Of a stretch of 63,790 bases of DNA, positions 36,378 through 60,412 are shown one piece after another. This stretch comes from Candidatus Omnitrophota bacterium. GTDB lineage: Bacteria > Omnitrophota > Gorgyraeia > Gorgyraeales > Gorgyraeaceae. Position numbers and translations under genes: made by a program. The stretch spans positions 1-63,790 of the forward strand of contig JAHIYJ010000034.1 in assembly GCA_018814825.1 (NCBI GenBank), written 5' to 3'. The stretch's first letter is position 1. Each line of letters starts with the position of its first letter. Under the pieces are notes generated by a model. The model was not told where the DNA came from. It did no database searches and saw only the letters and a program-made list of their open reading frames with translations.

Positions 36378-36430
36378 TAGCGTCTAGCGTATAGCGTATA
36401 GTTAAAGCTTTTCCTCTACGCTATACGCTA
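36378..36430. repeat. Heptamer-built inverted-repeat element between the ychF-like gene and purH
   Basis: The plus strand reads TAGCGTC TAGCGTA TAGCGTA TAG (36378-36401), a 14-nt spacer, then the inverted CTACGCTATACGCTA (36416-36430). The inverted arm overlaps the last three codons and the stop of the ychF-like gene. It can form a hairpin of about 14 bp. Confidence 0.75.
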
Positions 36431-43800: not shown

Positions 43801-44016
43801 GACCGCATCTTCCACATACCTAGTGACAAGCGATTCTACCTCTTCAGGAGGCATCCCCCCTCTTACGGCTATTATTATGCTTATATCCCCGTAAACTATA
43901 TTTGGCTTTAATTCAACGGGAAGCCGCAATAAAGACACCACCCCCACCAGCAATATGCCCAGAAATAGCATAAAGATAGTAACCGGGCGTTTAACAGAAA
44001 ACTCGGATAGGTTCAT
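40858..44016 (-). CDS. RND efflux permease (AcrB/MdtC-like), second pump of a tandem pair
   Basis: 1052-aa ORF with RND architecture: 12 TM and two large periplasmic loops. N-terminus is MNLSEFSVKRPVTIFMLFLGILLVGVVSL. Conserved TM4-like motif is GLALGIGMLVDNSIVVLDNI. Confidence 0.92.
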   Translation of the reverse strand: MNLSEFSVKRPVTIFMLFLGILLVGVVSLLRLPVELKPNIVYGDISIIIAVRGGMPPEEVESLVTRYVEDAVSTVSYLENIYSTSKAGESRVWLEFEPGTNMDFAALEVREEFSKIRDKLPKEIEKPIIAQYKESDTPVLVLAVTGKGYTPEILRKVVDEQIKERILRVEGVANVDVYGGRERKILVEVDKNKLYQYGIPMEQVVGTLGANNLNLLAGDVERTKDKYLIRVIGEYKSLDDIKNIGLIATPQGVIIKMGEIAKVKDSFLEPTNYARTDIEPVVSIYIQKESTANTIQVVFNIEEEIKKLKRNIDKDIFIKATLNQSDAIEEAIKAVKSSLLYGAMLAILVLLLFLRDPRVTAIIGVTIPISVMATFITMYFHKISINVMTLSGLALGIGMLVDNSIVVLDNIDKKKKKVSFSDPAWKQDCTKAIVNGASEVGLAIVASTITTIIVFLPFVFVNKATRMLWSGLALTVTYSLLSSLFVALTIVPMLSDRIKAKPINPRRHKKTMFKKSISEQVRSYYRKLLVLGLKLRYLCAAIAFAILVIALFIGSKTDREFMAGTEEGRFTIFVELEPGAKLDVTDQMAKEIEFLLADIQEIKTFTSRVEPWSSKVYVKLKPLVQRKHDTKTVIDDIREKAKAVERKYKGGFIYFSEIEEKGLKEIELDLYGYEYDVLKELAVSIATRLGTIEGFEDIRMSRISGRPEWAIAVDKEKAGLYGLTTKDIAETLHSEIRGLRATLYHTESREVETVSRLRKEDRERLDDLRKLVLFSNDGGPLLLEQVADFVPQIGASEIIRKNKMRVVHITAMITTSSLIKAVNKIRANLSDMEFPKDYYYRIGGNYERNIKNEKELWAFPTGVLWITIFLVYLVLASLFESYQQPFIIMISVPLAVIGVILALKITHKPISQGVIIGAIMLAGIVVNNAIVLVDRINFLRKRSNNLFKSLIEAGEDRLRPIAMTTSTTILGLLPMAFDRSESANLWSPLAITVIGGMASSTVMTLLLVPSIYMIFEDMRLVFVKPKELILFVRNIIYGIIKLKQKPRERTEA

Positions 44017-44020
44017 AAAA

Positions 44021-44093
44021 TCTAGCGGATAGCGGATAGCGGATAGCGGATAGAAAAATAAATACTATCCGCTAAACGCCATACGCTAAATCC
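44021..44093. repeat. Heptamer-built inverted-repeat element between the two RND genes
   Basis: The plus strand reads (TAGCGGA)x4 plus TAG (44023-44053), an 11-nt A/T spacer, the inverted CTATCCGCTA (44065-44074), then AACGCCATACGCTAAATCC. In mRNA sense it begins GGATTTAGCGTAT, like the 36378-36430 element. Confidence 0.75.
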
Positions 44094-44095
44094 AT

Positions 44096-47000: not shown

Positions 47001-47638
47001 TAATTTAGATTTGATGACTTTAAAGAATCCACTACTTTAGTTATAGAGATTGAAGAAGCATGCAGCCTACCCCCATCCACAGATACAAGTATTTCTCTTT
47101 CAATGCCTCCCGCTATATTACAGGAAGCCACTCCCTCCACCTTTTCCAGTTCATCCTTTATAAATTTTCTTGAGAGCCTTAGCAGTTCTGATGGGGACTT
47201 TTCTCCTATTACGCTCAGCGTGATAACAGGCATCTCAAATGGGTTGAACTTCATCACAATAGGATCGCTTGACCCCAGAGGAAGCCTCTCTTTTATAAGA
47301 TCTATTTTTTCCCTGACGCCCAATGAGGCAAAATCCATATTAGCGCCCCATCCAAACTCAGCAGTAACTATGGAGACTCCTTCTTTAGAGACAGAGCTTA
47401 TGCGTTTCAGATTACTTACTGTTCCGACTGTTTCTTCTATTATCTTTGTTATTAGCGTTTCTACTTCTTCTGGAGCGGCGTTTTCATATGTCGTAACTAT
47501 AGTGAGCTGAGGGTAAGTAATGGAGGGGAAAAGTTCTCTGGGGAGACGCGTCAGGGAAATAAACCCTAATATCAGAACCCCGATAAAGAACATAGAGGTT
47601 GTAACAGGTCTGTTTACTGAAAATTCTGGAAGATTCAT
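44096..47638 (-). CDS. RND efflux permease (AcrB/MdtB-like) with ~75-aa Pro/Lys-rich linker and C-terminal winged-helix DNA-binding-like domain
   Basis: 1180-aa ORF. The RND core runs to about aa 1040 (GLALGVGMLVDNAIVVIENI, last TM ILTLFVIPCIFTIVAGVI). The linker is KPKPAFVMPQSKPVPVLRTEKPLSIQLPESVKPEPKAEKPKIEPPAAIALPEKKPEG. The tail is LNKRQEQFLEHLRVKKKITRKEYSQLFKISVPTAARDLKELVDKNIIIARGPLGPGRWYEL. Confidence 0.88.
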   Translation of the reverse strand: MNLPEFSVNRPVTTSMFFIGVLILGFISLTRLPRELFPSITYPQLTIVTTYENAAPEEVETLITKIIEETVGTVSNLKRISSVSKEGVSIVTAEFGWGANMDFASLGVREKIDLIKERLPLGSSDPIVMKFNPFEMPVITLSVIGEKSPSELLRLSRKFIKDELEKVEGVASCNIAGGIEREILVSVDGGRLHASSISITKVVDSLKSSNLNYPAGTIEEHFYEYLIRTMGEFKVVPEIKETVVGKDKSEEDKVPEIPQEEQGEKKSRLIFLKDIADIKDTFQEKTSISRYNGQENISISVQKQAGVNTMRVAQNVRDKLVQIKRDLPPGMEVNIVYDQSIFIKKSIRGVMDAAIQGGILAFLVLFVFLRNIKASLIVAFSMPMSIMVAFSLMYFNGITLNMLSLGGLALGVGMLVDNAIVVIENIYSHLQKKKDIKEASKSGASEMSGAIFSSTLTTVAVFLPMIFVVGVAGQLFKELAFTVTFSLLASLVIALSLIPRLAAIKTDKLSKERPLVQNKKFTFGLESVYARIVPLVLKFKWIFLIAVLSVYVLSMGLFFFIDKEFMPKVDQREFVMKLTMPSGTKLDITDNVVKKIEEVFFGTKEVEGVAVSIGSSKKKDFASGLETMGSHQAQSIVTLKKGKQWPATSKVIERLKDKFSKLNLGGAEIEYVVQESVFKTALQGSAPIVIEIKGKKLDEIEKVAGYIKEDLLTIKGIYGIRTSLTQPAPETKVNIIKDRAALYNLSAAVIAQAAHTAIKGVVATKFKEEGREIDVRVRLRKEDRSNLSQVRNVLVYSPLDIQVPLSEVAYITQGIGPSEIKRLDQQRVVLVTANISDRALDKVIRDVKLMLDRIEREKISQLSSKDSEKDITLALSGESQQMNESFQSLRFALLLSILLVYMIMAAQFESLWQPFIIMFSVPLSIMGVLVALFVTHTPISVVVMLGVIILGGIVVNNGIILIDTINNLRSQGMDLTEAVIESGKTRLRPILMTTMTTVLGLLPLAMGIAEGSELQSPMAITVMGGLTISTILTLFVIPCIFTIVAGVIMPKADLKPKPAFVMPQSKPVPVLRTEKPLSIQLPESVKPEPKAEKPKIEPPAAIALPEKKPEGLSLKLNKRQEQFLEHLRVKKKITRKEYSQLFKISVPTAARDLKELVDKNIIIARGPLGPGRWYELKLEE

Positions 47639-47653
47639 TTTTCACTTTTAGTT

Positions 47654-48880
47654 TTATTTGGTGTTTTCTTGAACTTCTATAATTTTCACAGACATTCCAT
47701 CTTTTAATTCCTGGGGGGTATCAACAACTATTATCTCGTCCTCATAGACACCGGAGGATAGCACGGTAAAATCTGTGGTCACATAAGACACCTGGACTGT
47801 CTTGGAAGAAACTGTATTGTTTTTATCAACAATAAAAATTTTATAACCTTCTTCTACCTTATTGAGGCTTATGCTAGGCACAACTAGAGCGTCCTGAAAC
47901 TCAGCGACAGTAATCATGGCCCTGGCAAACATGCCAGGCAATAATAAAGCGTTTGAGTTTTCTATCCCCACTCTAATCGTAAGGGTCCTGGATTTCCCTT
48001 CTATAAGAGGAAAGACATTATCGACTGTCCCAAAAAAATCAGTGCCAGGATATGAATCCACCTTGACTTTTACTTCCTGACCGAGCGCTATCTTGTCTAT
48101 ATCTCTTTCCACAATACCCAGCTCCACAAATACCCGCATCGTATCATAAAGAGTAGCTATTTTATTATTCGGTGTAACAAATTCCCCTATCTCGGCATCC
48201 CTTGAACCTAGAACTCCGTCCCGCGGCGCGCATAGATCTGTTTTTTTAAACTCTGACTCTACTGACTTAAGCTCCACCTCGACTGATTCAGCCTGCAATC
48301 TAGCTGATTCCGCTTCCAGCTCCACTTCTTCCAGCTTCACTTTTATAATGCCTCCTATATCATAAAGCCTCTTGTGTATCTCCAGCTTCTTTTCTGCCGC
48401 AAGCGCTTGTACTTTTGCTGTTTCTAATTTACTTTTTGAGTAATCGACTTTCAGTTTAGCGTCTTTTTTATCTAGGTTTGCTATCAGATCTCCTTTATAT
48501 ATAATGTCCCCCTCTCTGAAATTAATAGACTCTATGACTCCATTGATCTCAAACTTCAGCTTTATTTCAAGCTCGCCTTTTACCGTACCCATTACAGGTA
48601 ATTCATCTTTAAAATCCGTGCGCGATACCCTAAAACACCTGACTGGTATGGCTTCAGTCCCTGGCCTAACGCCTTCAGGCTGAGCACCAGGTAAGGCGTC
48701 TGATTGCATATCTTCGGCTGTAAAGACACCCTTGGGCATTTCTCCCTGGACATCTTTTATAGCCGCCTTACCAGCTAGCTTGGTGGGTTTTTTCTTAAAC
48801 AGGGTAACGCCCCACACGATTAAAAAAGCCACCACCCATAAAAGTATAAAGCCTATAAGAAGGGTTTTTGATTTTTTCAT
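47654..48880 (-). CDS. RND periplasmic adaptor (membrane fusion protein, HlyD family)
   Basis: 408-aa ORF. N-terminal anchor, lipoyl/hairpin/beta-barrel order (GDIIYKGDLIANLD, coiled hairpin, GEFVTPNNKIATLYD, GMFARAMITV). Confidence 0.88.
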   Translation of the reverse strand: MKKSKTLLIGFILLWVVAFLIVWGVTLFKKKPTKLAGKAAIKDVQGEMPKGVFTAEDMQSDALPGAQPEGVRPGTEAIPVRCFRVSRTDFKDELPVMGTVKGELEIKLKFEINGVIESINFREGDIIYKGDLIANLDKKDAKLKVDYSKSKLETAKVQALAAEKKLEIHKRLYDIGGIIKVKLEEVELEAESARLQAESVEVELKSVESEFKKTDLCAPRDGVLGSRDAEIGEFVTPNNKIATLYDTMRVFVELGIVERDIDKIALGQEVKVKVDSYPGTDFFGTVDNVFPLIEGKSRTLTIRVGIENSNALLLPGMFARAMITVAEFQDALVVPSISLNKVEEGYKIFIVDKNNTVSSKTVQVSYVTTDFTVLSSGVYEDEIIVVDTPQELKDGMSVKIIEVQENTK

Positions 48881-48899
48881 GATCTTAAGCGTCAGGTCC

Positions 48900-50735
48900 T
48901 TATTTCATGTTTGCCAACATAAAACCTTTGTTATCCAGAAACAGCGCGTATCCCGTAGCCTTGTTTAATTTAGCCAAGGCCTGATATAAACTTCCTATTG
49001 ACTCTATGTAAAATAATTTTTCATCAGAAAGGCTCATGTAAGCTTTTATGAGTTCTGAGATTGGTATTTCATTCAATTCTGTCCGCGCCTTCGTGATTTT
49101 AAGCTCCTCTTCTCTGTATTTAATCTTGTCGAGATTAGTATTAACCTGGACAAGGCCTTTTTTGTAATTTAAATAAGATTCTTTTGCCTCTTTAATGACC
49201 AATTCCCTGGCTTTCTGCAAATCTTCTTTTGCTTTCTTAAACCCTATTTCCGCGGATTTCCGCTCAGAAAACGCCTGCATACCGTCAAGAAGGCCTAATT
49301 CCACGGCCTTACTAATTGATGATGTCCTTGAAGTCTGGCCATGTTTTTCGCTGGTCTCCTCCTTTGTATAGGAAGTGGATAGCGTATTTGACCCTAAAGG
49401 CTTGGAAACCTTTAGGCCAATAAACCAATCCTTATCCATATTAAGCGTCTCGGTTTCATACGCCCCGCCTGACTTTCCATAAGAACCCGTAAGGTCAACT
49501 TTTATCCGGTCTTTGCTTTCTGATATCTTCTTTTCATACTCGTTAAACTCCACCATATATTCCTTGGCTTTTAGATCAGGCCTGTTTCTAAAAGCCATCT
49601 CCAGGTAATCCTCAAATTCGAAGTCTAAATAAATAGGTTTCAGCTCAACAAGATTAATATCTGTATCTATAACAGATTCTAATTTATCAGGGTTTTCAAT
49701 ACCCATTGCCTGCGCCAATGTCAACTTGGCCATCTCCATGTCATTATTGCTTGAAGTCATTTGATAATTAATCTGTTTTATCTGAGATTCAACCTGTAAA
49801 AATTCCGACCTTGTAGTCAGGCCCATATCAAATCGCTTTTTAGCTATATCAAAAATTTTCTGTGTCTGATCCAAAAGGGTTTTCTGTGTTTCGAGATTAA
49901 GCTTGCTTGCCAGATAGGCATAAAATCCTGTTTCCACTTCTATCCGTATTTCCTGAAGGGCCTTATCGTAATTATGCCTTGATGCATTTACATTACTGAT
50001 AGCCTGTTCAACCGCGTATTTAAGCCTCCCCGCATAGTACAGAGGGTATTCAAACTTAAGTTTATATTCCTTATCAGTAAAATCCTGGGTCGAACCAGTG
50101 GTCTGCCCTATTGTCTCCATATAATTCAAACTTGATGCCGGGAAAAGCGCTCGGTGCGCCTCTCTGAGCTTAAGCCTTGCCAATTCCACCTCTTCAGACG
50201 CAATCTTTGCGGCCATCTGATTTTCCAGAGCAATATCAACTGCGTCATTAATATTATATAAATCTAATTTTTCTCCTTCAATTTTGTTCTCAGTGGTTCT
50301 GTAAATCTTAGCCTTCTTATCTGACATCTGTTCCGGTGTCTTAACCTGAGCCTTTAAATCAAATATCACAGGCACCTCTATCCATAAATCTTCTTCCCCT
50401 AATGCCTCAGGAAAAGGTTGAAACCTGTCGTATTTCCAAACCGCATTGAGACACAAATTATCAAGCTCCTGGCTGCCTGACGACTCTGACACATAGGCAT
50501 CTTTCACCTCACCCCATGGAGAAAGAAGCAGCTTTATTCTTATTTCTCCTCTGGAATCACGCAAAACAGATTCGCTGGGTGTCAAAATGTCTGCGTAAAT
50601 ATCTCTTGATATTTCAAGAATATAATTTGTGATAATATCCGAAGGATGAGGATAGGCAAATGATATGGTTTGTGAAAATGCTGTAATTATAATAATTACG
50701 ATGAGATATAATAATATGATACGCTTTATAAACAT
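48900..50735 (-). CDS. TolC-family outer membrane factor with N-terminal TonB C-terminal-like domain
   Basis: 611-aa ORF. After the signal peptide comes GEIRIKLLLSPWGEVKDAYVSESSGSQELDNLCLNAVWKYDRFQPFPEALGEEDLWIEVPVIFDL (TonB_C pattern). About aa 160-611 has the duplicated OMF coiled/barrel repeats (AVDIALENQMAAKIASEEVELARLKLREA, LTTRSEFLQVESQIKQ). Confidence 0.85.
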   Translation of the reverse strand: MFIKRIILLYLIVIIIITAFSQTISFAYPHPSDIITNYILEISRDIYADILTPSESVLRDSRGEIRIKLLLSPWGEVKDAYVSESSGSQELDNLCLNAVWKYDRFQPFPEALGEEDLWIEVPVIFDLKAQVKTPEQMSDKKAKIYRTTENKIEGEKLDLYNINDAVDIALENQMAAKIASEEVELARLKLREAHRALFPASSLNYMETIGQTTGSTQDFTDKEYKLKFEYPLYYAGRLKYAVEQAISNVNASRHNYDKALQEIRIEVETGFYAYLASKLNLETQKTLLDQTQKIFDIAKKRFDMGLTTRSEFLQVESQIKQINYQMTSSNNDMEMAKLTLAQAMGIENPDKLESVIDTDINLVELKPIYLDFEFEDYLEMAFRNRPDLKAKEYMVEFNEYEKKISESKDRIKVDLTGSYGKSGGAYETETLNMDKDWFIGLKVSKPLGSNTLSTSYTKEETSEKHGQTSRTSSISKAVELGLLDGMQAFSERKSAEIGFKKAKEDLQKARELVIKEAKESYLNYKKGLVQVNTNLDKIKYREEELKITKARTELNEIPISELIKAYMSLSDEKLFYIESIGSLYQALAKLNKATGYALFLDNKGFMLANMK

Positions 50736-50756
50736 AACTTCTCCTAGTAAGGGAGA

Positions 50757-50785
50757 AGTATATCATACTATTATTATTTTGTCAA
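50757..50785 (-). promoter_or_regulatory. Sigma70 promoter for the RND efflux operon
   Basis: Minus-strand reading: TTGACA (50780-50785), 17-nt spacer AAATAATAATAGTATGA, TATACT (50757-50762). It lies about 21 nt upstream of ATG 50735, which has SD AGGAGAAG. Confidence 0.6.
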
Positions 50786-50818
50786 TAGTAGGTAAGTGAT
50801 ACGGTGTTGATACGGTTA

Positions 50819-50936
50819 CCCCGCACCTTTTTATATTCAGGCATTTTCTTAAAAAGATTGAATGGTTAAAAGGTGCGGGGTAAGTTCGGACAGATGGGTT
50901 ATGAAAATCAAAGATTTTCGTAACCCATGTCCTCAC
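50819..50936. repeat. Structured intergenic repeat, copy A (two hairpins), abutting the ROK gene stop codon
   Basis: Plus-strand reading. Hairpin 1 is CCCCGCACCTTTT, a 36-nt loop, AAAAGGTGCGGGG. Then TAAGTTC. Hairpin 2 is GGAC AG ATGGGTTATGAAAATC AAAG ATTTTCGTAACCCAT GTCC, followed by TCAC. By manual alignment, 64 of the last 69 nt are identical to copy B. Confidence 0.85.
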
Positions 50937-52178
50937 TTAAGCCTTTATAAAGACCTCACGTATTACTATGCTCGCGGCACCCAGAGCAACAGCGTCTTTC
51001 CCAAGCTGAGCTGGTATAATCTTTACTATATTTGCAGGCTCTTCAAATGCCCATTTCCTTACTGTCCTTCTAAGAGGTTCGAGGAACAGGCTGCCTGCTT
51101 TCTCAACTCCGCCCCCTATTATAACTATCTCAGGATTAAAGAGGTTCACCAGATACGCTATACGCACGCCAAGATTAACAGCAGCGTCTTCTAGGAGCTC
51201 TATGGCAAGCGTATCACCGGCCTTTGCCGCGTCTATGATATGGTTCACTGCCATCTTATCCAGGTCGTTGCCGCAGATTTGAGGTATAGTAGATTCTATG
51301 CCCTCTTCCTTTATAAGTTTCTGCGCCCTGCTTATAAGCCCAAGATCAAGGCCCATAGGCAATAATAACGATAGGTTCTTTGACATCTTAAGGTAATCGC
51401 CGTTCCTGGGATAATTTATGCGAATCTCTCCTGCTGACCCGCTCGCTCCGCAATATATACCGCCTTTTATTATGATACCTGAGCCCACATCAGAATACAT
51501 ATAGATAACATCTTCGACATCCATGGGAAGAGCGTGCATTTTTTCGCCAAAAGCCGCGAATGTGGCATCGTTCCCCAGAAAAGAGGGGATCTCGAATCTT
51601 TCCTCTATCATGCCTTTTATGGACACATAACTTGTGCGTATCCCGTTTTTGCTTGAATCCCTTACAGTGCCAAGGCCCTTGTCTATAACACCTCCTATTC
51701 CTATACCAACACCTCTCACCTTTTCTTTTATGACTCCTTTTTTACCCATCAGTTCTTCTATCATATCAAGAGACTGATCTATGATCCTATCCATGGAGTC
51801 TTTTGCCCTTAACTTGTCTATTTTCGATATAATCTTGCCCGATAGATCCGTAACCACTCCTATCATCGTAGCGCCTTCAGAACCCGTATGCCCCAGATCA
51901 AGGCCTATGGCGTAACCATGCTCCTCATTCAATTTGACCAGGGTAGGCTTCCTACCCCCGGAAGACGCTTCCATGCCCCCTTCTATGACAAGCTTCTCGT
52001 TTATATAGGTATTGACATAATTTGATACGGTTACTATGTTCAGGTCTGTGATCTTGGAGATATCAGCCCTTGTGATAGGCCCGTTTCTTCGTATAAACTC
52101 CAATATTGAGAAATTTTTTTTCTCGTGGTCCGAAAGCAAACTTCCCTCTAACGCCCGGTTTCTATTGGTAATTGGCAT
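50937..52178 (-). CDS. ROK-family transcriptional regulator (NagC/XylR-like)
   Basis: 413-aa ORF with SD AAGGAGG. The N-terminal wHTH is ILEFIRRNGPITRADISKITDLNIVTVSNYVNTYI. ROK sugar-kinase fold motifs are AIGLDLG, GIGIGGVID and GASGSAGEI. The Cys-rich zinc motif is not evident. Confidence 0.88.
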   Translation of the reverse strand: MPITNRNRALEGSLLSDHEKKNFSILEFIRRNGPITRADISKITDLNIVTVSNYVNTYINEKLVIEGGMEASSGGRKPTLVKLNEEHGYAIGLDLGHTGSEGATMIGVVTDLSGKIISKIDKLRAKDSMDRIIDQSLDMIEELMGKKGVIKEKVRGVGIGIGGVIDKGLGTVRDSSKNGIRTSYVSIKGMIEERFEIPSFLGNDATFAAFGEKMHALPMDVEDVIYMYSDVGSGIIIKGGIYCGASGSAGEIRINYPRNGDYLKMSKNLSLLLPMGLDLGLISRAQKLIKEEGIESTIPQICGNDLDKMAVNHIIDAAKAGDTLAIELLEDAAVNLGVRIAYLVNLFNPEIVIIGGGVEKAGSLFLEPLRRTVRKWAFEEPANIVKIIPAQLGKDAVALGAASIVIREVFIKA

Positions 52179-52197
52179 GTGTCCCTCCTTTTAATGA

Positions 52198-52250
52198 GCA
52201 GACGACTTATGGAGCGCAGCGACATAAGTCGTAGGCTGAAAGCCGTCTGC
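52198..52250 (-). other. Multi-stem structured element in the ROK gene leader
   Basis: The plus strand reads GCAGACGACTTATGGAGCGCAGCGACATAAGTCGTAGGCTGAAAGCCGTCTGC. It can form a 10-bp stem ACGACTTATG/CATAAGTCGT, a mini-hairpin GGCT/AGCC and an outer stem GCAG(AC)/(GT)CTGC. It ends about 19 nt upstream of the ROK ATG. Confidence 0.4.
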
Positions 52251-52257
52251 GAATTAA

Positions 52258-52367
52258 CCCCGCACCTTCTTAATATTCATCGACTGTAAGAAATATATAA
52301 AAGGTGCGGGGTAAGTTCGGACTTATGGCTTACGAAAATCAAAGATTTTCGTAAGCCATGTCCTCAC
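52258..52367. repeat. Structured intergenic repeat, copy B, abutting the stop codon of the 929-aa OMP gene
   Basis: Same architecture as copy A. Hairpin 1 is CCCCGCACCTTCT, a loop of about 28 nt, AAAAGGTGCGGGG. Then TAAGTTC. Hairpin 2 is GGAC TT ATGGCTTACGAAAATC AAAG ATTTTCGTAAGCCAT GTCC, followed by TCAC. Confidence 0.85.
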
Positions 52368-55145
52368 CTAGAATATTCCGTGATAGTAAATACGCAGTAT
52401 GTGCTGCGTATCGAGTGTCGGATAAAAATCCCCGTAAGGGCTCGCTGTCGCGCCCCATACAGGGGAAACAACGCTTCCCTCTCCAAACTGTATCACCAGA
52501 AGCCCGTATTCAGTGACATTGCAATTGAACTCCATGAACACGTTGTGGTGATTCTCGTATTTCAGGTCTCCGGTCGTGTTCAGGCGATACATATTATACA
52601 GCTTGGAAAATGTGTATTTGAGGAACCCCGTAAGCCTTGGGTTAAACTTATATTTTAAAGTAGTCCCTATATGGTTTATATTGTCATCTATACCTGAGGC
52701 AAACTTGAAGTCGTTTTTAGTATAGTCAAAGTCTATCCCTAGTTTTTCGGTAGGCCGCAGGGAGATGCCGGCCCTGAATATATTGAACCTGTCATAAGGC
52801 GGAAGGTCAAACCAACCCTGACTGTAAAGCTGGGCAATCTCATCCCTGTATACCTTGCCTTCTATAGTCTCGGTCGTAAAATATGTGCTGTTTAAGAGCC
52901 CGTTCGGATGGTTGCCTGTCCCAAACCTGTAATCATTTGTATTTTCATAGATACCAAACAAGCTTATCCATTCCTCAGGCGCGTATTCCAGGCCAAAGGA
53001 ATACGTGGAAAGCGATGGGTCATTGCCGTCTTCGATCGCCGTATTCTTGAGGAATTCTCCTGTATCAGAATCATACTGTATAGGGTCTATGCCGCCTTTT
53101 GTTTTCGGTAGATCATGGTATATATACAAAAGCTTTGATGTCCACCTGGGATTAATCCTCAGGGTATTCTCTTCCCTGAAAACCCCTTCCACGTATTTAT
53201 GCTCGGAATCCCTTACATACCTGCAATCTATCAGGTTATCCATCTTGCTGTCAAAGGCGTCCCTGGAATCCAGCCTGAAATTAATGGCGTCCCTACCTAT
53301 ATCAACGCCATCCCCTATCCTGAAAGGCTCCACGTCCTCATATTTCAACGACGTGCCGCCCCATGCGTCCTGCTCAAGAGGTTTTTTAAAATGTATGTGC
53401 CTTCCCCAGTGCATATCTTTTCTTGTTTCCCTGTAATTCGCGAGACCGGGGTCAAACGTCTCATCCATATGCGTTATGGCTAACTTGGCGTTACCGAGTC
53501 CTGTCTCTTTTTTAACGGCAAGGTGCCCTGCTGTTCCGTTTTTCTCAGTCTTATAGGAACTTGTTCTGTCATATTCGCTCTTACTCATCGCGACCTGGCC
53601 TACTATATTAGTGGAAGGGTTCAGGTCATAACTCGCGTCAACGCCCAATACATTATTGTAGGAATCTGTGTTATTGTCATCATCATAACCTATCCTGAAC
53701 GTGTCTATGGTCCCTATCATAAGGCTGTCTGTCAACTGCGTCTTTGTCCTCATTGCGCCGGGAATAGCGTTTACCTCCCCATAATCGTCCCACAGGCCCT
53801 TGGGACTAGCCACGGTCATTGACATGTCCGTATTGCCCAGCAGATTACCTTGAAAGGCCACTCCGCGCAGGGCAGTAAGCCTTTTCAGGTCGCTGTCCCG
53901 CGTGAAAAAGGTCAAATCGTCTGACCATTCTCCTCTCCAGAAGTCATCCGGGGTCGTCCCTGTATTAATATGCCCTGGTTTCCACTCGTCCAACCAGGGG
54001 CTCGGTTCCCAGTATATGTGGTGGTTAGAAAGACCCATAGGGTCATCGGAAGAAAGCGCCTGGTCCTCAAGGCCATAAGGAAATACCCTGAACTTGTAAT
54101 CCTCCTGATTAAAATCAAACCACAGCTCTCTTACTGGCTGAAATGTAAAATCTATGTCTTTCTCAGGGATCGTAAAAGTATTCCCATAGAGATCCGAGAC
54201 AGTAGTGGAAGGCATCTTGCCGTCTGAAACTTTATATTCAGATGTTGCTATAGATGCGCCTGTATCGAGAGTATATAAAATTTCGTTTATAGTGCTCCTG
54301 GTGCCAGACCAATATTTCAATTCCATCTCGACCCTATCTCCGCCGCCATTTCTTGTAACAGTAAATTTATCTGTCTTACCAACAAAACTCCACGGGTCCA
54401 CAGTTATATCTGAATGGAGATTAAAACCCTCTGCATCCTTATTCGTATCAAATGTCACCTTAAATCGATCATACACCCTTGTATCAAATGTATTTGTCTT
54501 GGGGAAATTATGATCTATCATCCTGAAGTTACGCTCATTATAGTCGGCGTTAGCCTTTTTCCAAATAACGTCTTCTGTCGTCACGCCTACCGACATCTTG
54601 TATTCACCCTTTATCCTTCCGGGGGCAATCTTCTCATTCAGCGCGTCAGTAACAACCTTTATCTTGTCTTCGCTATACCCCGGGTCTTCAGGAATCCTAC
54701 CAGGCCTATAGTCTTTATATTCATAGGAGTCTTCATATGTGTTTGTATCAGGTTCATAAGGCTCTATTTCGGCGTAAACCCTGCTCTCATTAAAATCCGA
54801 TTCCCTCTTCAGGTTATTCTCATCCTGGTAAAAATCTAGCTTGCCGCGCGCGCGCATGTTCAGCTCAGCATTCACCAAGTCAAGATAACCCTGGGCATCA
54901 TCATTCATGGGATCAACCTTTAGGGCTCTTTCCAAGATACTCTTTGCCTCATGAAGCTTTCCTGCGTGGTAATAATCCACACCCCTGCCATAAAGCCCGA
55001 AACTCTCGGCAATATTCTGTTCCTGGGCATACAAGGCCGCCAGGACACAAGGACACAAAGACACAAGGACACAAAGACACAAGGACACAAAGACACAACA
55101 ATATTGGTGACTTGGTGACTTGGTGACTTGGTGACTCCTGCGCAT
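52368..55145 (-). CDS. Large secreted protein: N-terminal TPR segment plus C-terminal beta-barrel-like outer-membrane domain
   Basis: The track ORF runs to 55157 (929 aa). The ATG at 55143-55145 has GGAG 6 nt upstream and lies 2 nt after the upstream stop. The signal peptide is encoded by tandem repeats and ends AALYA/QEQ. A TPR-like segment is YYHAGKLHEAKSILERALKVDPMNDDAQ. The Y/D/N-rich body has alternating strands and ends LRIYYHGIF. Confidence 0.75.
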   Translation of the reverse strand: MRRSHQVTKSPSHQYCCVFVSLCLCVLVSLCPCVLAALYAQEQNIAESFGLYGRGVDYYHAGKLHEAKSILERALKVDPMNDDAQGYLDLVNAELNMRARGKLDFYQDENNLKRESDFNESRVYAEIEPYEPDTNTYEDSYEYKDYRPGRIPEDPGYSEDKIKVVTDALNEKIAPGRIKGEYKMSVGVTTEDVIWKKANADYNERNFRMIDHNFPKTNTFDTRVYDRFKVTFDTNKDAEGFNLHSDITVDPWSFVGKTDKFTVTRNGGGDRVEMELKYWSGTRSTINEILYTLDTGASIATSEYKVSDGKMPSTTVSDLYGNTFTIPEKDIDFTFQPVRELWFDFNQEDYKFRVFPYGLEDQALSSDDPMGLSNHHIYWEPSPWLDEWKPGHINTGTTPDDFWRGEWSDDLTFFTRDSDLKRLTALRGVAFQGNLLGNTDMSMTVASPKGLWDDYGEVNAIPGAMRTKTQLTDSLMIGTIDTFRIGYDDDNNTDSYNNVLGVDASYDLNPSTNIVGQVAMSKSEYDRTSSYKTEKNGTAGHLAVKKETGLGNAKLAITHMDETFDPGLANYRETRKDMHWGRHIHFKKPLEQDAWGGTSLKYEDVEPFRIGDGVDIGRDAINFRLDSRDAFDSKMDNLIDCRYVRDSEHKYVEGVFREENTLRINPRWTSKLLYIYHDLPKTKGGIDPIQYDSDTGEFLKNTAIEDGNDPSLSTYSFGLEYAPEEWISLFGIYENTNDYRFGTGNHPNGLLNSTYFTTETIEGKVYRDEIAQLYSQGWFDLPPYDRFNIFRAGISLRPTEKLGIDFDYTKNDFKFASGIDDNINHIGTTLKYKFNPRLTGFLKYTFSKLYNMYRLNTTGDLKYENHHNVFMEFNCNVTEYGLLVIQFGEGSVVSPVWGATASPYGDFYPTLDTQHILRIYYHGIF
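55043..55136. repeat. Two adjacent 8-nt tandem repeat arrays inside the 5' end of the OMP gene
   Basis: The plus strand has seven units of GGACACAA/AGACACAA (55043-55098), a 6-nt spacer, then four units of TGGTGACT (55105-55136). In mRNA sense these are (AGTCACCA)x4 followed by (TTGTGTCY)x7. They encode RSHQVTKSPSHQ and CCVFVSLCLCVLVSLCPCVL. Confidence 0.9.
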
Positions 55146-55147
55146 TT

Positions 55148-56362
55148 CTATCTCCATAGCTCCTTTAGCTTAAAGTATGCCTTAGTGGGTTTGCGCTTGT
55201 CAAGACCGGCCTTGCTTTTCTCCAGGGAACATACTCCCCACCATTCCTCATTTATGTTCAGGTTCTGAGGGGCCTTTATGTCAAAGTAATACGCTCCATT
55301 AGACCAGGTGGGAATCGTATCGTGGACAAACCAACCCGTTTTGTTCTCTTCATTAAACTTCCACCACTCATCCGTCCACTCAAAGACAAACGCGCCGATA
55401 CAATTGCCCACGCCGCTTCCCTCAAAAGTGTTTTTCTCTATCTCGTTCCACTCCGCCTCGAGAAATTCCGCCTGTATGCCCTGGTCCTCTTCGTTTAAAA
55501 AGGCATTATACCTGTCACAACCAAATTCCGTTATCATGATAGGCCTTTTGAACTTTGTGGCGCCTTCCCTGAAAAAACTGCCGAAGGCCTTTCCTCTGTA
55601 TATCGAACATCCTAGTATATCTATGTCAGGGCTTACTTCCGCGGCGACATCTATGTCCGTTAATTCCGCATTGGCCAGCACAGTAGGGTGATACGGGTCT
55701 ATCTCATGGATAGCCCAGGAAACTTCATTTACAAATTCATAATATATCCTGGCCCTGGCAATCCTCTTAAGATAAGGGTCCTGGAGGGCTTCTATCTCGT
55801 CGGTGGTCCAGAGGTTCATTGTTTGCGGGCCGTAAGAAAAAGAGACATTGTTTTCATTGCCCAGTATCCAGCATAAAATGCCTTTTTCGTTTTTGTAGGT
55901 CTCCACCATATCAATGACATCTTTTTTGACCCTTGCCCTGAAAACCGGATCCGCGTAATTCGCGTTATCCCAGAAACCAAGCCAGTGGCCCATGGCTGTG
56001 CGAACCCCGAACTTTACATAAAGGTCTTTTATAACCTGTTTTGTTTTTTCAGGATCAATGCCAGGCTTATAGACCCTTATGGTATTAACCCCCATCTCTC
56101 TCATTAACCTGCCGTCATATATATGAGGCCTGGCCGGGTCTTTCCAAAATTCATACTCGTGGTTCTTCCCTATAGGGACTGGGCTATACACCATACCTTT
56201 AATTATATAGGGCTTGCCGTTGACTGTTAACTGAAAACGCTTACCTTCCAGGGTTTTTATATAAACCTTGTCCGGCCCCATGTTGCTGAAAATATAGAAA
56301 GACAAAAAAGCGGTTACTAAAAATAAAATTATAGCGCTTATAATAATATATCTTTTTTTCAT
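55148..56362 (-). CDS. Secreted clan GH-A-like TIM-barrel glycoside hydrolase or transglycosylase (GH2/GH5-like; family unassigned)
   Basis: The track ORF runs to 56395, but its first 11 codons lie inside a 17-bp hairpin. The ATG at 56360-56362 gives MKKRYIIISAIILFLVTAFLSF. Motifs are MGVNTIRVY, WILGNENN, MITEFGCD and FEWTDEWWK. It is a paralog of the C-terminal half of ORF 57228-59543. Confidence 0.8.
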   Translation of the reverse strand: MKKRYIIISAIILFLVTAFLSFYIFSNMGPDKVYIKTLEGKRFQLTVNGKPYIIKGMVYSPVPIGKNHEYEFWKDPARPHIYDGRLMREMGVNTIRVYKPGIDPEKTKQVIKDLYVKFGVRTAMGHWLGFWDNANYADPVFRARVKKDVIDMVETYKNEKGILCWILGNENNVSFSYGPQTMNLWTTDEIEALQDPYLKRIARARIYYEFVNEVSWAIHEIDPYHPTVLANAELTDIDVAAEVSPDIDILGCSIYRGKAFGSFFREGATKFKRPIMITEFGCDRYNAFLNEEDQGIQAEFLEAEWNEIEKNTFEGSGVGNCIGAFVFEWTDEWWKFNEENKTGWFVHDTIPTWSNGAYYFDIKAPQNLNINEEWWGVCSLEKSKAGLDKRKPTKAYFKLKELWR

Positions 56363-56384
56363 ATAGTTAATAATCCCGATGATC

Positions 56385-56421
56385 CAAACCCGCATCGCAA
56401 TTTTATTGCGATGCGGGTTTG
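56385..56421 (-). terminator. Strong GC-cored hairpin between the lipoprotein gene and the hydrolase gene (terminator/attenuator-like)
   Basis: CAAACCCGCATCGCAAT TTT ATTGCGATGCGGGTTTG forms a perfect stem of about 16-17 bp. In mRNA sense only UUUG follows the GC core, so the U tract is weak. Confidence 0.4.
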
Positions 56422-56431
56422 AAAACTATTA

Positions 56432-57142
56432 TTATTCGTATCTTATGTCGTCTAGATAGAAAGTCATTCCGTCGGGATTTACGTCGATGTTACTCGCCCA
56501 GCAAAAACCTCCGCTTATATAGCTAAGGTCTTTCCCTCTTAAGTCTATCTCGTACTGTTTCCACTCCGGAGTTAAAAGCACGGGCCCTATCCCGGCTATG
56601 TCAGAATCAGGGTACAGGCCCGTGAGGCCTCCTACTTTGAATTCCTCTATCCTTTCTCCGCCTTTCTCTCCTCTTGCCCAGAATGTGAGCTTTGTAGCTC
56701 CTGTCAGGTCAAATCCGCCCTGTCGATCGCCCCAGTTATTGGCCGGGTTCTGCCAGTAGACTCCGGCCCACCTAGCGCCCTGACTTGTGGCGTCTGAGTA
56801 AACTATTTTTATGCAGGTGGTCCCACTGTGCGGATTATCAAAAGAAGAAGCATCTATCTTGATATCAGAATAATCGCCCATATACCCCGAAGGGATATAA
56901 TGATTATCCGGGGACATACCATCACTGTAAACAGGGAATGGCTTAAAAGAGCTCACTACAGGCTCTTTTTCCGTGTACGCGTCATACATGTCCTCATAAT
57001 CATAATCATCGGCGTAGTCCGCCTTTGCCAGCTGCGTAGCGTCTGTCTTGGCCGTATCAGCCTTGGATCCGCCGCAGCTTGCTATGCTGAATAACACAAG
57101 TCCGGCTATCACAAGCAACGTTAAACTTAAACTTTTCTTCAT
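56432..57142 (-). CDS. Lipoprotein with C-terminal carbohydrate-binding-module-like beta-sandwich
   Basis: 236-aa ORF. Lipobox LFSIASC and a D/Y-rich linker. The C-terminal ~150 aa read ARWAGVYWQNPANNWGD...KLTFWARGEKGGERIEEFKVGG...EWKQYEIDL...FYLDDIRYE. The CBM-like call is from memory only. Confidence 0.65.
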   Translation of the reverse strand: MKKSLSLTLLVIAGLVLFSIASCGGSKADTAKTDATQLAKADYADDYDYEDMYDAYTEKEPVVSSFKPFPVYSDGMSPDNHYIPSGYMGDYSDIKIDASSFDNPHSGTTCIKIVYSDATSQGARWAGVYWQNPANNWGDRQGGFDLTGATKLTFWARGEKGGERIEEFKVGGLTGLYPDSDIAGIGPVLLTPEWKQYEIDLRGKDLSYISGGFCWASNIDVNPDGMTFYLDDIRYE

Positions 57143-57227
57143 TTCAATTTCCTCCCTAGTTTATATATACATCGCACGTTTAACTTTAAACTTTTAACTT
57201 CGTACTATATAAACGCACCCCCCTTCC

Positions 57228-59543
57228 TTATTTATTCCACATTTCCTGATACATAAAATATGATTTTTTAAGCTGTCTCAAGAACGGGCTGTGTTGTCCG
57301 TCTCCCTGGCCTGTTACGCCAAGCCATTCCTCATAATTCCAGCCGTCAGGAAACGGGCCTGACCAGTTTTGTTTCGCGTCATGCAATAAAGGCTCATAGG
57401 CCTTCCACCATTCATCTACCCACTCAAACTGAATGCCGCCTATTGAATTACCGGCCCCTTTATGTCCGGCTGAATTATAAACCATATCTTCCCAGTTTCC
57501 CTTGAGATATTCAGCCTGTTTTTCCTCACTAAACTCTCCTGATTTACCATCCATGTAACTAGGGCACCCGTATTCTGTAATAATTACCGGGATATCGCAC
57601 GTCTCTTTGACATTATTCCAGAAACTATTTCCAAACCCATACTTCCCCCTGTAGGCATTCGACCCATAGATATCTATGGAAGGCGCGTTTTCTTTAAACT
57701 TATCAAGGAACAATAAGTCTCCGCTGCACACAGCGACAGGATGATCCCTGTCTATGGATTTTATCATCTCGGCCACTTCGTTCGTAAAGGCGTAATAGCT
57801 GGCTGGTTTTTCTTTGGCATTGTTCGCTACTCCGTAATTTGTCTCATTGCCAAGCATCCAAAATAATACATAGGGTTCATCCTTGAATTCCTCCACCATC
57901 CCCCTGACGCTTTGCATCATGTTTTTTCTATGCTCCGGGTTCTCGTAATCGGTACCTTCGTACCAGCTCGCCCCCGAACCTACGGTATAAGCACCCAGAA
58001 GATCACCCATGATAACCATAATCCCATAACGATTATACAAATCTCTCAGTAGTTCTTTGTTTGACGCGTGATGATAAAGCCTTATAGTATTGCACCCCAT
58101 ATTTTTCAGCAGCTCAAAGTCTCCTATGCCGGGCTCGTCTTCATCCTGTATATTATTATAATTTTTGTCTACCCACGCGTCATAGGGGCTATCTATTTTC
58201 CCGTTATTGTTATAGTCCGCCTGCATCCAGTCGTCCAGGGTCCCCTCGTCAGGGCTCTGTCCTATTTTGCTGGGCGAATAAGCTACCCCCTTTATAAAAT
58301 AAGGCCTGCCCTCCACCCTTAACTGCCAGTGTCCGTTCGCGTATTTAACGAGGTCTACCTTCCCGTCTCCCGCCTGTTTTATAACCTTCCCCGTCTCTTC
58401 CCTTGCGTCCTTGAACAGACGCCTTTTTATTTTATCGAGAAAACTAAGCTTCACTATTTTTCCGGGATTCACGAAAAATTTATCATTGGCGATGTTATTG
58501 TCAAATCCGTTTTCTAGGAATATCCTCGCCTCGCGTAATTCCGCCCCTAATTCTGGATTATGCCTTAATATATAGTCTATCCTGTCTATAGCTACCTGTC
58601 CTACATACCATGGTGTGTGAAAATACGTCCAGCCTACGGATTTTGGGAAATGCACGGCAATGGCGTAATACGCTTTAATGGCGTGCCTTAAAAGCCCGGA
58701 CCTCTCAAGTGCCATAGCTATATAAAAAAGCTTTACTCCCGTAGGTTCAGGCGCCTGCGCCCATTTGTAAAAGTTGGCCTCTAAATCATCTGTATTGACA
58801 AAATCCCAGTGGTTCCCCTTTAATCTGCCTTCTTTTTTCACCTCTCGATAGCGGGGATCCCATGTAATACCGGATGTATTGGGGTATATGCCCTCTCCCA
58901 CCGCGGCCGCCAGGCCTTCAGGGTCTTTCACGACATATCTGTATTTTTCGGTGCCCAACCCCTTAAAATAACCGTATCTTGTGTAATCCACGAAATCTTC
59001 CTTACCCTGGTCATGGAGCGTGATAGTCGTGGCCGGACGTAATATCTTTGGTTTTTCTTCAGCGGCTGCCTTTTCTCCTTTTTTGCCCTCGATCTTGTCA
59101 AGGCTGGCCTGAGCTTTTTCTTTTACGCTCCAGAACCAGCCCCTTGGGTCCCAGTTCTGCGAATAGCCATATTCCTGTATCGCTGTATCAAAGACCTTTT
59201 TGGCTTCCTCTATCTTTCCCTGTGACAGATAAGCCTCCCCCTGGATAAAATAACTGGTCCCGACGGCGTTCAACGCCACGTACTGGTCTATGCTTTCTGT
59301 TGACGGCAATGCTTTAAGGGACATCTGCTGTCTTCCGGCCTCTTTAAAGTATTCCTCAATACATTTATTCGTGTAATAAAATGTCCTTTCGTAGTCCTTG
59401 CCGCCCCAGGATTCCCATGCCCGGACAATGAGCTGTTTAGGAGAAAGCTCTTCATCAGCGTATAGCGTATAGCGTATAGCGTATAGCGGAAAAAATACAA
59501 CTATTAAAAGACTCAATATAATTCTAAATCTTAAATTTTTCAC
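57228..59543 (-). CDS. Secreted TPR-containing protein with C-terminal clan GH-A-like TIM-barrel domain
   Basis: 771-aa ORF (GTG start in the track). Signal peptide is MKNLRFRIILSLLIVVFFPLYA. A TPR-like N-terminal part contains GEAYLSQGKIEEAKKVFDTAIQEYG. The C-terminal half has HWQLRVEGRPYFIKGVAYSP, MGCNTIRLYHH, WMLGNETNY, IITEYGCPSY and FEWVDEWWKA. Confidence 0.8.
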   Translation of the reverse strand: MKNLRFRIILSLLIVVFFPLYAIRYTLYADEELSPKQLIVRAWESWGGKDYERTFYYTNKCIEEYFKEAGRQQMSLKALPSTESIDQYVALNAVGTSYFIQGEAYLSQGKIEEAKKVFDTAIQEYGYSQNWDPRGWFWSVKEKAQASLDKIEGKKGEKAAAEEKPKILRPATTITLHDQGKEDFVDYTRYGYFKGLGTEKYRYVVKDPEGLAAAVGEGIYPNTSGITWDPRYREVKKEGRLKGNHWDFVNTDDLEANFYKWAQAPEPTGVKLFYIAMALERSGLLRHAIKAYYAIAVHFPKSVGWTYFHTPWYVGQVAIDRIDYILRHNPELGAELREARIFLENGFDNNIANDKFFVNPGKIVKLSFLDKIKRRLFKDAREETGKVIKQAGDGKVDLVKYANGHWQLRVEGRPYFIKGVAYSPSKIGQSPDEGTLDDWMQADYNNNGKIDSPYDAWVDKNYNNIQDEDEPGIGDFELLKNMGCNTIRLYHHASNKELLRDLYNRYGIMVIMGDLLGAYTVGSGASWYEGTDYENPEHRKNMMQSVRGMVEEFKDEPYVLFWMLGNETNYGVANNAKEKPASYYAFTNEVAEMIKSIDRDHPVAVCSGDLLFLDKFKENAPSIDIYGSNAYRGKYGFGNSFWNNVKETCDIPVIITEYGCPSYMDGKSGEFSEEKQAEYLKGNWEDMVYNSAGHKGAGNSIGGIQFEWVDEWWKAYEPLLHDAKQNWSGPFPDGWNYEEWLGVTGQGDGQHSPFLRQLKKSYFMYQEMWNK
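59460..59487. repeat. Heptamer tandem repeat (GTATAGC)x4 inside the signal-peptide coding region of the 771-aa gene
   Basis: In mRNA sense this is (CGCTATA)x4 and encodes PLYAIRYTLYA. It uses the same heptamer word as the 3' arm of the 36378-36430 element. My hand count and the ORF track differ by 1 nt in this stretch, so the coordinates are plus or minus 1-2 nt. Confidence 0.85.
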
Positions 59544-59563
59544 TTTAAACCTTTCACTTCTAA

Positions 59564-60412
59564 CTATCCTACGATAGCCCCCGCCGTAATGCCTTTAATG
59601 ATGTGTTTCTGCATTAACAGGTATACCAGAATTATGGGCAGAACTGTTATGGTCATGCCTGCCATGAGAAGCGGGTATTGCGTAATATGGGTGCCCTGGA
59701 ATATCATAAGGCCCCTCTGGAGAGGCATTAAAGATTTGGATGAAAATATTAAAGTAGCCAGTATATACTCGTTCCACACATTCAGGGAATTAAATATCAC
59801 TATTACCGCTATGGCCGGCCTGGCCAGCGGCAGCGCCACGTTCCACCATATGCCGAGTTTTGAACAGCCGTCTATGCGCGCCGCGTCCTCAAGAGCAGGA
59901 GGCATCTTGTCAAAAAATGTCTTCAATAGGTAGATGCTGAAAGAAAGTCCGACGTTTATCATGCACAGTATATATCCTATCCGCGTATTCACCAAGTGCA
60001 GTTTTGTCATCAATACGTAAAGCGGCACAAAACTTCCCGGCAAAGGAATCATCATCGCCCCCAGGAACATGTAAAACAAAACATTCTTGCCCGGGAATTT
60101 CAGCCTGGAGAAGGCAAAGGCCGCGAGAGAGGAAACAATCACTATGCCTGAAACAACGGTAACGGTATAAAATATGCTGTTCAGAAAATAGACGCCGAAG
60201 CCGCCCTTGGTCCAAGCGTCATAAAAGTTTGTCCATACAGGGTGTTTCGGGATTATGCTCATATCAGAAAAGACGGCCTGCTGCGTCTTCAGGCTGGAGC
60301 CAACCATCCAGAGCAGAGGGAATATGCACGTGACAGCCACTATGATAAGAAACAAGTGGATAAGCGAGTCCTTGAAAAATCTTTCTATCTTATATCTGGT
60401 CCCTTCTCTCAT
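59564..60412 (-). CDS. Carbohydrate ABC transporter permease (MalG-like, CUT1)
   Basis: 282-aa ORF with 6 TM and the EAA loop EDAARIDGCSKLGIWWNVALPLARPA. Confidence 0.9.
   Translation of the reverse strand: MREGTRYKIERFFKDSLIHLFLIIVAVTCIFPLLWMVGSSLKTQQAVFSDMSIIPKHPVWTNFYDAWTKGGFGVYFLNSIFYTVTVVSGIVIVSSLAAFAFSRLKFPGKNVLFYMFLGAMMIPLPGSFVPLYVLMTKLHLVNTRIGYILCMINVGLSFSIYLLKTFFDKMPPALEDAARIDGCSKLGIWWNVALPLARPAIAVIVIFNSLNVWNEYILATLIFSSKSLMPLQRGLMIFQGTHITQYPLLMAGMTITVLPIILVYLLMQKHIIKGITAGAIVG

Follow-up and report, generated by a model that had tools for sequence, protein, structure and literature searches.

An inverted pair of octamer-repeat arrays appears to encode a signal peptide in a Candidatus Omnitrophota bacterium

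Introduction

In Neisseria, the hydrophobic core of the leader of an outer-membrane protein, Opa, is encoded by a tandem repeat of a 5-nt unit (CTCTT), and the number of units sets the frame of the start codon. Here we analyze a similar arrangement in a 63,790-nt stretch of DNA (hereafter the window) from a Candidatus Omnitrophota bacterium (contig JAHIYJ010000034.1, assembly GCA_018814825.1), in which two arrays of 8-nt units lie at the 5′ end of a gene for a 929-amino-acid (aa) protein and appear to encode its signal peptide. As in opa, a non-triplet repeat would specify the hydrophobic core of the leader of a probable outer-membrane protein, with unit number setting the frame of the start codon. 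Unlike opa, the locus has 8-nt units and two inverted arrays predicted to pair as a hairpin, and no ON/OFF polymorphism was seen. A further contrast with opa is that, within the lineage, its repeats are also present in intergenic hairpins and in housekeeping genes; the organism itself is uncultured and environmental, and is not known to face immune pressure from a host.

Dispersed repeats offer further points of comparison. Rickettsia palindromic elements are selfish palindromes with unique sequences of 100–150 bp that lie in frame in protein genes. The repeats described here likewise form a family of hairpin-forming palindromes that appears to be tolerated in frame where the extra peptide is harmless, but they consist of tandem arrays, and in the two enzymes that we checked (Dxs and LeuS) they coincide with existing loops and cause little or no net insertion. 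The closest descriptions that we found are those of the cyanobacterial STRR heptamers and of the TAACTGA repeats of Beggiatoaceae, Cyanobacteria, and Bacteroidetes. The TAACTGA repeats comprise 169 sets of 2–6 copies, of which most immediately precede a start codon and some fall inside open reading frames (ORFs); their function is unknown, and translational control is suspected (MacGregor 2015, PMC4679880). The Omnitrophota repeats resemble them in unit length (7 nt there, 7–8 nt here), in the small number of copies per set, in what may be many sites per genome (perhaps often at start codons, with occasional sets inside ORFs), in that stop codons bar one orientation from coding, and in that the same unit appears in distant phyla with lineage-specific abundance. 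They differ in the units themselves, in the predominance of octamers, in the many sets that lie in frame within conserved enzymes, in the palindromic pairing of arrays, and in the construction of a whole signal peptide from two arms. Finally, the octanucleotide simple sequence repeats of Haemophilus influenzae have 8-nt units in 1–15 copies that vary between strains and have been proposed to mediate phase variation (PMC2651432), so the usual range of 1–7 nt assumed for such units in a preliminary, sequence-only reading of our locus was too narrow. Those tracts, unlike the arrays in the window, lie upstream of genes (in promoters or untranslated regions, UTRs) rather than in a leader, and do not form palindromic pairs.

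Leader-encoded repeats and dispersed heptamer arrays are already known. In the literature searched we found no description of a palindrome of octamer arrays that at the same time serves as a signal peptide and whose arms have diverged so as to avoid stop codons, of its Omnitrophota-wide context (including housekeeping genes), or of the replacement of whole leader cassettes.

Results

The gene for the 929-aa protein (52368–55157) lies on the minus strand, which holds all genes of the window, and its ORF encodes a predicted signal peptide, a tetratricopeptide-repeat (TPR)-like N-terminal segment, and a large beta-rich domain ending in ...YYHGIF. On that strand the 5′ end of the gene reads ATGGAGATAGAAATGCGCAGG-(AGTCACCA)4-ATATTG-(TTGTGTCY)7-CTGGCGGCCTTGTATGCC, followed beyond the predicted cleavage site by CAGGAACAG, and every unit is perfect. 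Translation across both arrays gives the leader MEIEMRRSHQVTKSPSHQYCCVFVSLCLCVLVSLCPCVLAALYA↓QEQ (the arrow marks the predicted cleavage site here and below). Array 1 (four units, 55105–55136) encodes a polar extension of the n-region, SHQVTKSPSHQ; the spacer ATATTG (55099–55104) follows; array 2 (seven units, 55043–55098) encodes the hydrophobic core CVFVSLCLCVLVSLCPCV; and two decayed units (55026–55042) encode the c-region ..AALYA, with cleavage predicted before Q45 (55025). Tandem Repeats Finder reported array 1 at 55104–55136 (period 8, 4.1 copies) and array 2 at 55044–55098 (period 16, 3.4 copies), both with 100% matches, and none of 100 dinucleotide-preserving shuffles reached the observed match number of either unit. 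The sequence-only reading had located and described both arrays exactly, and its seven TTGTGTCY units are correct, although array 2 also has a perfect 16-nt higher-order period of alternating TTGTGTCT and TTGTGTCC. It had also placed array 1 immediately after the start codon; the array in fact begins 18 nt after the ATG at 55157 and 6 nt after a second ATG at 55145.

Several features support the earlier proposal that the arrays are translated and form the n-region and hydrophobic core of a Sec-type leader. By inspection, the leader contains R6, R7, and K13, then ~25 hydrophobic residues, then LYA↓QEQ, which aligns with xCYA↓QEQ of the orthologues; the motif x-(C/L)-Y-A↓Q-E-Q at the predicted cleavage site is kept across orthologues. 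The h-region is long for a cleaved leader, and the arrays would add ~18 residues to a conventional one. Independent Logan contigs (k=31) of the source biofilm run (SRR2544004) match array 1, and array 2 at each of its edges, without a mismatch, but they break within array 2 (55069/55073), so that the count of seven units rests on the window's own assembly.

The predicted start codon (ATG, 55155–55157) overlaps the last codons and the stop codon (55148–55150) of the gene for a 415-aa glycosidase (ATGGAGATAG), a layout suggestive of translational coupling. AAGGAG lies just before this ATG, and GGAG lies 6 nt before the second. Three repeat-free orthologues (L009, L011, L016) share this overlap, with ATGGAGATA(A/G), and continue into an ordinary leader of 26–28 aa, which in L016 is MEIERSYIINVLLVCAILCWGLPCYA↓QEQ. 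Because these orthologues keep both the ATG/stop overlap and an ordinary leader, we place the translation start upstream of the arrays, in agreement with the sequence-only reading.

The complementarity of the arrays indicates that they are the two arms of one imperfect palindrome and not two independent contingency tracts. RGACACAA, the reverse complement of TTGTGTCY, differs from AGTCACCA at only 2 of 8 positions, and in the predicted fold of a 156-nt RNA array 1 pairs with array 2 around a loop region formed by the spacer (minimum free energy −48.9 kcal/mol, z −3.3, with none of 200 shuffles as stable). Stronger hairpins were predicted in some orthologues (L245, −68.5 kcal/mol and z −8.4; L002, z −4.4; L013, z −3.8), and repeat-free orthologue leaders folded at z +0.6 to −2.2. 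Between L023 and L245, whose proteins are 88% identical, the arms co-vary (CACAAG/CTTGTG versus CACCAG/CTGGTG). The window, L023, and L245 all retain a U·U mismatch in which GUCAC faces GUGUC. We attribute its retention to coding, because the perfect complement TTGGTGAC carries TGA in every frame, and GTGTC in place of GTGAC removes the stop. Intergenic palindromes of the same repeat family (L177, L185) retain GTGAC in the 3′ arm, whereas the coding ones have GTGTC, and the window element looks to be derived from an intergenic repeat hairpin in a form compatible with coding. Complementarity makes one arm, the 5′ one, A/C-rich, so that it reads as polar SHQVTKSP, and the 3′ arm G/T-rich, so that it reads as hydrophobic LCLCVLVS in all three frames; the order of the arms would reproduce that of the n-region and h-region of a signal peptide. 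We considered whether the hairpin is an intrinsic terminator and rejected the idea, as a terminator scan was negative and there is no U-tract; a scan of 54700–55500 against Rfam 15 gave no covariance-model match at E ≤ 1.

Orthologous loci (36 fetched by internal protein motifs and several more by exact protein) include some, at 65–88% identity, in which the element recurs with a different number of units and is in frame in every case. L023 has five GGTCAYAR units, ATATT, and then decayed TTGTGTCY units; L245 has six units followed by about nine; P0025 has two; L001 and L012 have one unit and a decayed array; and L013 and L010 have an AT-rich form. In other orthologues the hydrophobic core is encoded by different 7- or 8-nt arrays, namely (TTGYGGC)×4.6 in L002, (CTTGTGCA)×4 in L027, and (CTTATCC)×4.6 in L015. 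Unit number thus varies among relatives, as a switch of the kind suggested from sequence alone would lead one to expect, but no OFF allele was found among the natural sequences: all 11 array-bearing orthologous loci are in frame from an ATG through the arrays to the mature protein. Four truncated gene calls that we considered as OFF alleles (P0037, P0020, P0035, P0042) proved to be in frame or cut by a contig end. The spacer junction GTCACCAATAT is kept in L023, L001, and P0025, and the junction GTCACCAATATT is read as V-T-N-I in those three and as H-Q-Y-C in the window. This difference in frame implies that both arrays changed unit number, with mutual compensation.

The segment from the upstream stop codon to the cleavage site, whose conserved left flank is the 3′ end of the 415-aa glycosidase-like gene (55148–56395, minus strand; ORF list, Pfam, and orthologue comparison), is a hypervariable cassette with rapid turnover and preserved frame. 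In clusters of at least 90% identity, proteins that are near-identical in their mature parts have unrelated leaders in the pairs P0019/P0130 (98.2% over 889 residues), P0002/P0129 (96%), and P0093/P0144 (90%). At the DNA level, P0019 and P0130 match without a difference (100%) over the 178 nt upstream and again from the cleavage motif on, and between these sharp boundaries lie ~195 and ~95 unrelated bases. The P0019 cassette holds remnants of the 3′ end of the glycosidase gene and, by eye, the end of an intervening-sequence-protein gene of the type that L002 carries as a fragment (see below), a content that points to recombination with differently organized loci. In a relative ~95% identical at the nucleotide level, seen in four other metagenomes (X2, X3, X4, X6; from estuary, groundwater, and marine sources), exactly 55032–55153 is replaced by 171 other bases (net +49 nt); this relative must use a start other than the conserved overlapping ATG. 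Between the glycosidase and TPR/beta-barrel genes of L002 lies a piece of a 23S-rRNA-intervening-sequence-protein gene (2790–3047; PF05635, E 4e-15) that is broken by stops and whose end is overlapped by the annotated start MEILQKS. By eye, the upstream regions of L027 and L369 (starts MEILQKF and MEVLQKF) resemble that of L002.

Scans for exact unit matches, with one genome per species, found (TTGTGTCY)×4 in 79 stretches, 8 of them in Omnitrophota metagenome-assembled genomes (MAGs) with up to three per MAG, and (AGTCACCA)×3 in 118 stretches, with 16 from Omnitrophota among the 80 listed; a few genomes of other phyla had more than 10 (AGTCACCA)×3 loci each. Four MAGs contained several loci of the window's units (three each in JBAZOA01, JACRHO01, and VGKK01 and two in JAPLMD01), and the window's own genome was seen over 64 kb. 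In Omnitrophota leaders, the TTGTGTCY orientation occurs in a TPR protein (L053), an M48 lipoprotein with an LAGC lipobox (L075), and an orthologue of a 771-aa enzyme of the window (L064), and the complementary orientation is in frame in MnmE, Lnt, and a radical-SAM enzyme (loops) and in a pseudopilin leader. Three to four units of AGTCACCA, mostly 33 nt encoding KSPSHQVTKSP, are in frame in many genes of other Omnitrophota MAGs, including those for PheS (L126), an RnfC-like protein (L133), PyrF (L150), PurL (L152), PurD (L155), Dxs (L161), TopA (L163), a GltD-like protein (L164), a membrane subunit (L172), LeuS (L175), ValS (L179), and an oxidoreductase (L187). We asked whether such arrays are simple 33-nt insertions, which was not upheld: those in Dxs and LeuS align with existing variable loops and add 0–3 residues relative to solved structures. 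Outside the phylum, three Bacteroidales species (L140, L149, L220) carry a 27-nt AGTCACCA tract (SHQVTKSPS) at the same position, before a conserved ...FTHLHVHSHFSILDG motif of one long ORF, and a AGTCACCA tract can evidently be inherited unchanged. By eye, we take that ORF to resemble the PHP-domain start of DNA polymerase III alpha.

We also scanned for an arbitrary, composition-matched control octamer, (CATCAGCA)×3, which occurred in at least 120 stretches, almost all from Bacteroidota (Saprospiraceae, Prolixibacteraceae, and Chitinophagaceae) and often at several loci per genome (L249–L328), with no Omnitrophota among the 80 listed. Because the control was at least as frequent, we rejected a unique abundance of AGTCACCA and TTGTGTCY. 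Arrays of octamers seem to be a general, widespread, and little-described feature of genomes, with lineage-specific units. A scan of viral contigs gave only five hits, so that nothing points to a phage as their vehicle. Across 350 kb of DNA from Omnitrophota loci we counted 40 arrays of period 8 (of which ~24 are the bait that fetched the loci), 23 of period 7, and one each of periods 6 and 9, so that 63 of 65 arrays had period 7 or 8, and their modal length was ~32–34 nt. The window itself has two octamer and three heptamer arrays of 3.4–7 copies, all five within ~115 nt of a start codon and two with inverted partners; in other Omnitrophota, many 7- and 8-nt arrays lie deep inside ORFs.

Discussion

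We consider it probable, though by no means certain, that both arrays are the arms of one palindromic octamer-repeat element, a member of a dispersed family of the STRR/TAACTGA type that is translated as a signal peptide. On this proposal, the element sits in a sugar-uptake operon, at the translationally coupled junction of the glycosidase gene with the gene that follows it, and is read as the signal peptide of the latter. Its A/C-rich 5′ arm would supply the polar, basic n-region and its G/T-rich 3′ arm the hydrophobic core, with GTGTC for GTGAC in each 3′-arm unit freeing that arm of stop codons. The RNA hairpin would begin ~20 nt after the start codon, where it might tie initiation to ribosomes finishing the upstream gene or set mRNA stability, and leader variants may tune expression or export. 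Unit numbers would change with the frame kept, and whole leaders would be replaced between near-identical strains. Several observations weigh against this interpretation. The evidence for signal-peptide function consists of inspection and conservation only; L023 and L001 fold weakly (z about −1.2), so that a strong hairpin is not universal; the raw match number of the window's units is not special, as the control octamer shows, and what sets them apart is solely their distribution among lineages; array 2 has 7 perfect units, more than the usual ~4, as in an actively slipping tract; and the junction frame shift implies either joint changes of the arrays or at least one out-of-frame intermediate.

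The last two observations bear on the most serious rival, which is that the locus is a true contingency locus in which slippage switches a surface protein on and off or, in steps of three units, alters leader length, much as in opa. The leader of this probable surface protein does contain perfect non-triplet tracts (8-nt units, with a 16-nt higher-order unit, neither divisible by 3), one of which is unusually long; unit numbers differ among orthologues (L023 versus L245, P0025); the junction frames imply compensated changes; and, among close relatives, no other part of the gene varies as much as the leader segment. In a frame simulation the gene was ON only when (n1+n2) mod 3 = 2, as for one in three unit combinations, and otherwise gave products of 58–89 aa, which bears out the earlier arithmetic that a single unit shifts the frame. 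Precedents exist both in the leader repeats of opa and in the strain-variable octanucleotide tracts of H. influenzae. However, none of the 11 array-bearing loci is out of frame, and because eight of them were fetched by internal motifs, independently of the N terminus, the chance of this outcome under random phase is about (1/3)^8. Nor are the window's units concentrated in surface genes: in other Omnitrophota they are in frame in pheS, leuS, valS, topA, dxs, purD, purL, pyrF, lnt, and mnmE, among them essential genes (aminoacyl-tRNA synthetases, topA, dxs, lnt, mnmE) in which on/off switching makes no sense. The 27-nt tract shared by three Bacteroidales species argues that tracts can stay stable for long, and many of the strain differences are replacements of a whole cassette rather than changes of unit number. 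Slippage by one or two units would turn the protein off; we regard this as a by-product or a liability that comes with the repeat and not as a demonstrated switch. A switch as the explanation of the locus is unlikely, if still the strongest of its competitors, and dedicated phase variation of the 929-aa gene is possible but unproven.

A more mundane explanation, which we judge improbable, is that the count in array 2 is an assembly estimate, that the true tract is off by multiples of 16 nt, and that the in-frame state is accidental. The locus is present in 14 runs as k=31 contigs that break at every array. Those of the source metagenome (run X1, window 43000–60000) end at 44026, at 55069/55073 within array 2, and at 59486, and one low-depth contig "goes back 48" within array 2. 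That contig, though, has mismatches and probably represents another locus with the same repeat; other organisms of the same study have the same arrays in different flanks (X13 and X14 records), and depth over the array is 3–40 times background in several metagenomes. Moreover, ordinary Illumina reads are longer than the tract (56 nt, or 94 nt if array 1 is included), which a read-spanning assembler can therefore resolve, the assembled count yields an intact 929-aa ORF, and orthologous loci from other assemblers are also in frame. It is more doubtful still, to the point of being very hard to credit, that the arrays are untranslated, with the start downstream and the repeats serving as a 5′ UTR or intergenic hairpin. 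The public gene call (P0001, 898 aa) does begin at GTG 55064, which is V32 within array 2; many orthologous loci have an untranslated intergenic hairpin between the two genes (L007, L026, L033, L036, L247); and TTG or GTG codons occur in every frame of array 2. Yet the resulting leader, MSLCPCVLAALYA, would have ~9 hydrophobic residues and no basic n-region, whereas the leaders of all orthologues are full ones of more than 20 aa, and because only this 13-residue leader without an n-region would remain we treat the P0001 start, 31 codons too late, as a caller artefact. The array lacks an internal Shine-Dalgarno sequence, and it is the two upstream ATGs that are preceded by GGAG and AAGGAG; the frame is open from the conserved coupled ATG through both arrays; and the loss of TGA from every 3′-arm unit is expected only under translation. 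Similarly truncated gene calls occur in relatives (P0037, P0009).

If the two arrays are indeed a translated palindromic element, the locus provides a concrete route from a non-coding repeat hairpin to protein sequence: read one way, the element would give a polar loop, read the other way, a membrane-targeting core, and its two arms together would make a signal peptide. A broader and distinctly speculative extension, to which we give less credence than even to the switch, is that palindromic 7- and 8-nt arrays are a proliferating class of elements in Omnitrophota, and probably in Bacteroidota and other phyla, that act as dual-coding cassettes of a leader and a translation-controlling hairpin, are exchanged among strains, and set expression, possibly as a stochastic on/off state. 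The opposite hydropathy of sense and antisense codons would make arms that are read through a ready-made signal peptide, and elements that arise de novo, expand or contract, and swap by recombination in conserved flanks would become interchangeable leaders of secreted-protein genes. Omnitrophota genomes carry dense arrays of ~32 nt, made of 7- or 8-nt units and tolerated in frame even in aminoacyl-tRNA synthetases. Because automatic calls of such genes come out too short (by 31 codons in this case) and assemblies built with short k-mers break at every array, secretome predictions and MAG contiguity for these lineages are biased. Should unit numbers prove heterogeneous in populations, repeat-driven phase variation would extend to free-living or episymbiotic nanobacteria.

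Other features of the window

The 929-aa gene lies in a sugar-uptake operon, in which the order of products is a solute-binding protein and two ABC permeases, the 771-aa TPR+GH2-like enzyme, a 236-aa protein, the 415-aa glycosidase-like protein, the 929-aa protein, an ROK regulator, and a TolC-like protein. Homologues of the 929-aa protein numbered 215, and those named by their sources were almost all from Omnitrophota, where the family is called "tetratricopeptide repeat protein". Exact-protein look-ups with this product and with that of the upstream gene matched the source-run contig alone, and a search with the N-terminal 258 aa, aimed at close partial relatives, returned only seven distant hits. 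Pfam gave only sub-threshold TPR and Porin_4 hits, and matches to the barrel families Porin_4 and OMP_b-brl were weak (sub-threshold or precomputed only). The protein has a C-terminal aromatic residue (...YYHGIF), and its AlphaFold model, of low confidence (predicted local distance difference test score, pLDDT, 48), is helical at residues 35–103 and thereafter mostly beta hairpins. A 611-aa protein (48900–50735, minus strand) is an unusual fusion of an N-terminal TonB C-terminal domain (residues 53–127) with a TolC/OEP efflux domain, and the same fusion adjoins the orthologous loci L001 and L002.

Heptamer arrays occur at three other genes of the window. Within the leader of the 771-aa enzyme (..FFPLYAIRYTLYA↓DEE), (CTATACG)×4.6 lies at 59457–59488 on the minus strand (Tandem Repeats Finder, ORF list), and slippage of this 7-nt unit would likewise shift the frame. 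Its orthologue in another species, L064, has (TTGTGTCT)×5 in the leader and an upstream inverted (GACACCAG) array; in L064 the ATG that looks most canonical (MARRNTY..) does not share the frame, and an in-frame ATG lies only further upstream. The other two arrays, (CTATCCG)×4.4 at 44023–44085 and (CTATACG)×3.4 at 36378–36427, have inverted partial copies 10–15 nt away and could form hairpins. The distance to the start codon that follows is 7 nt for the first, which precedes a 1052-aa ORF, and 16 nt for the second, which precedes a 531-aa ORF; the 1052-aa ORF, judging from its N-terminal sequence, probably encodes an RND-type transporter.

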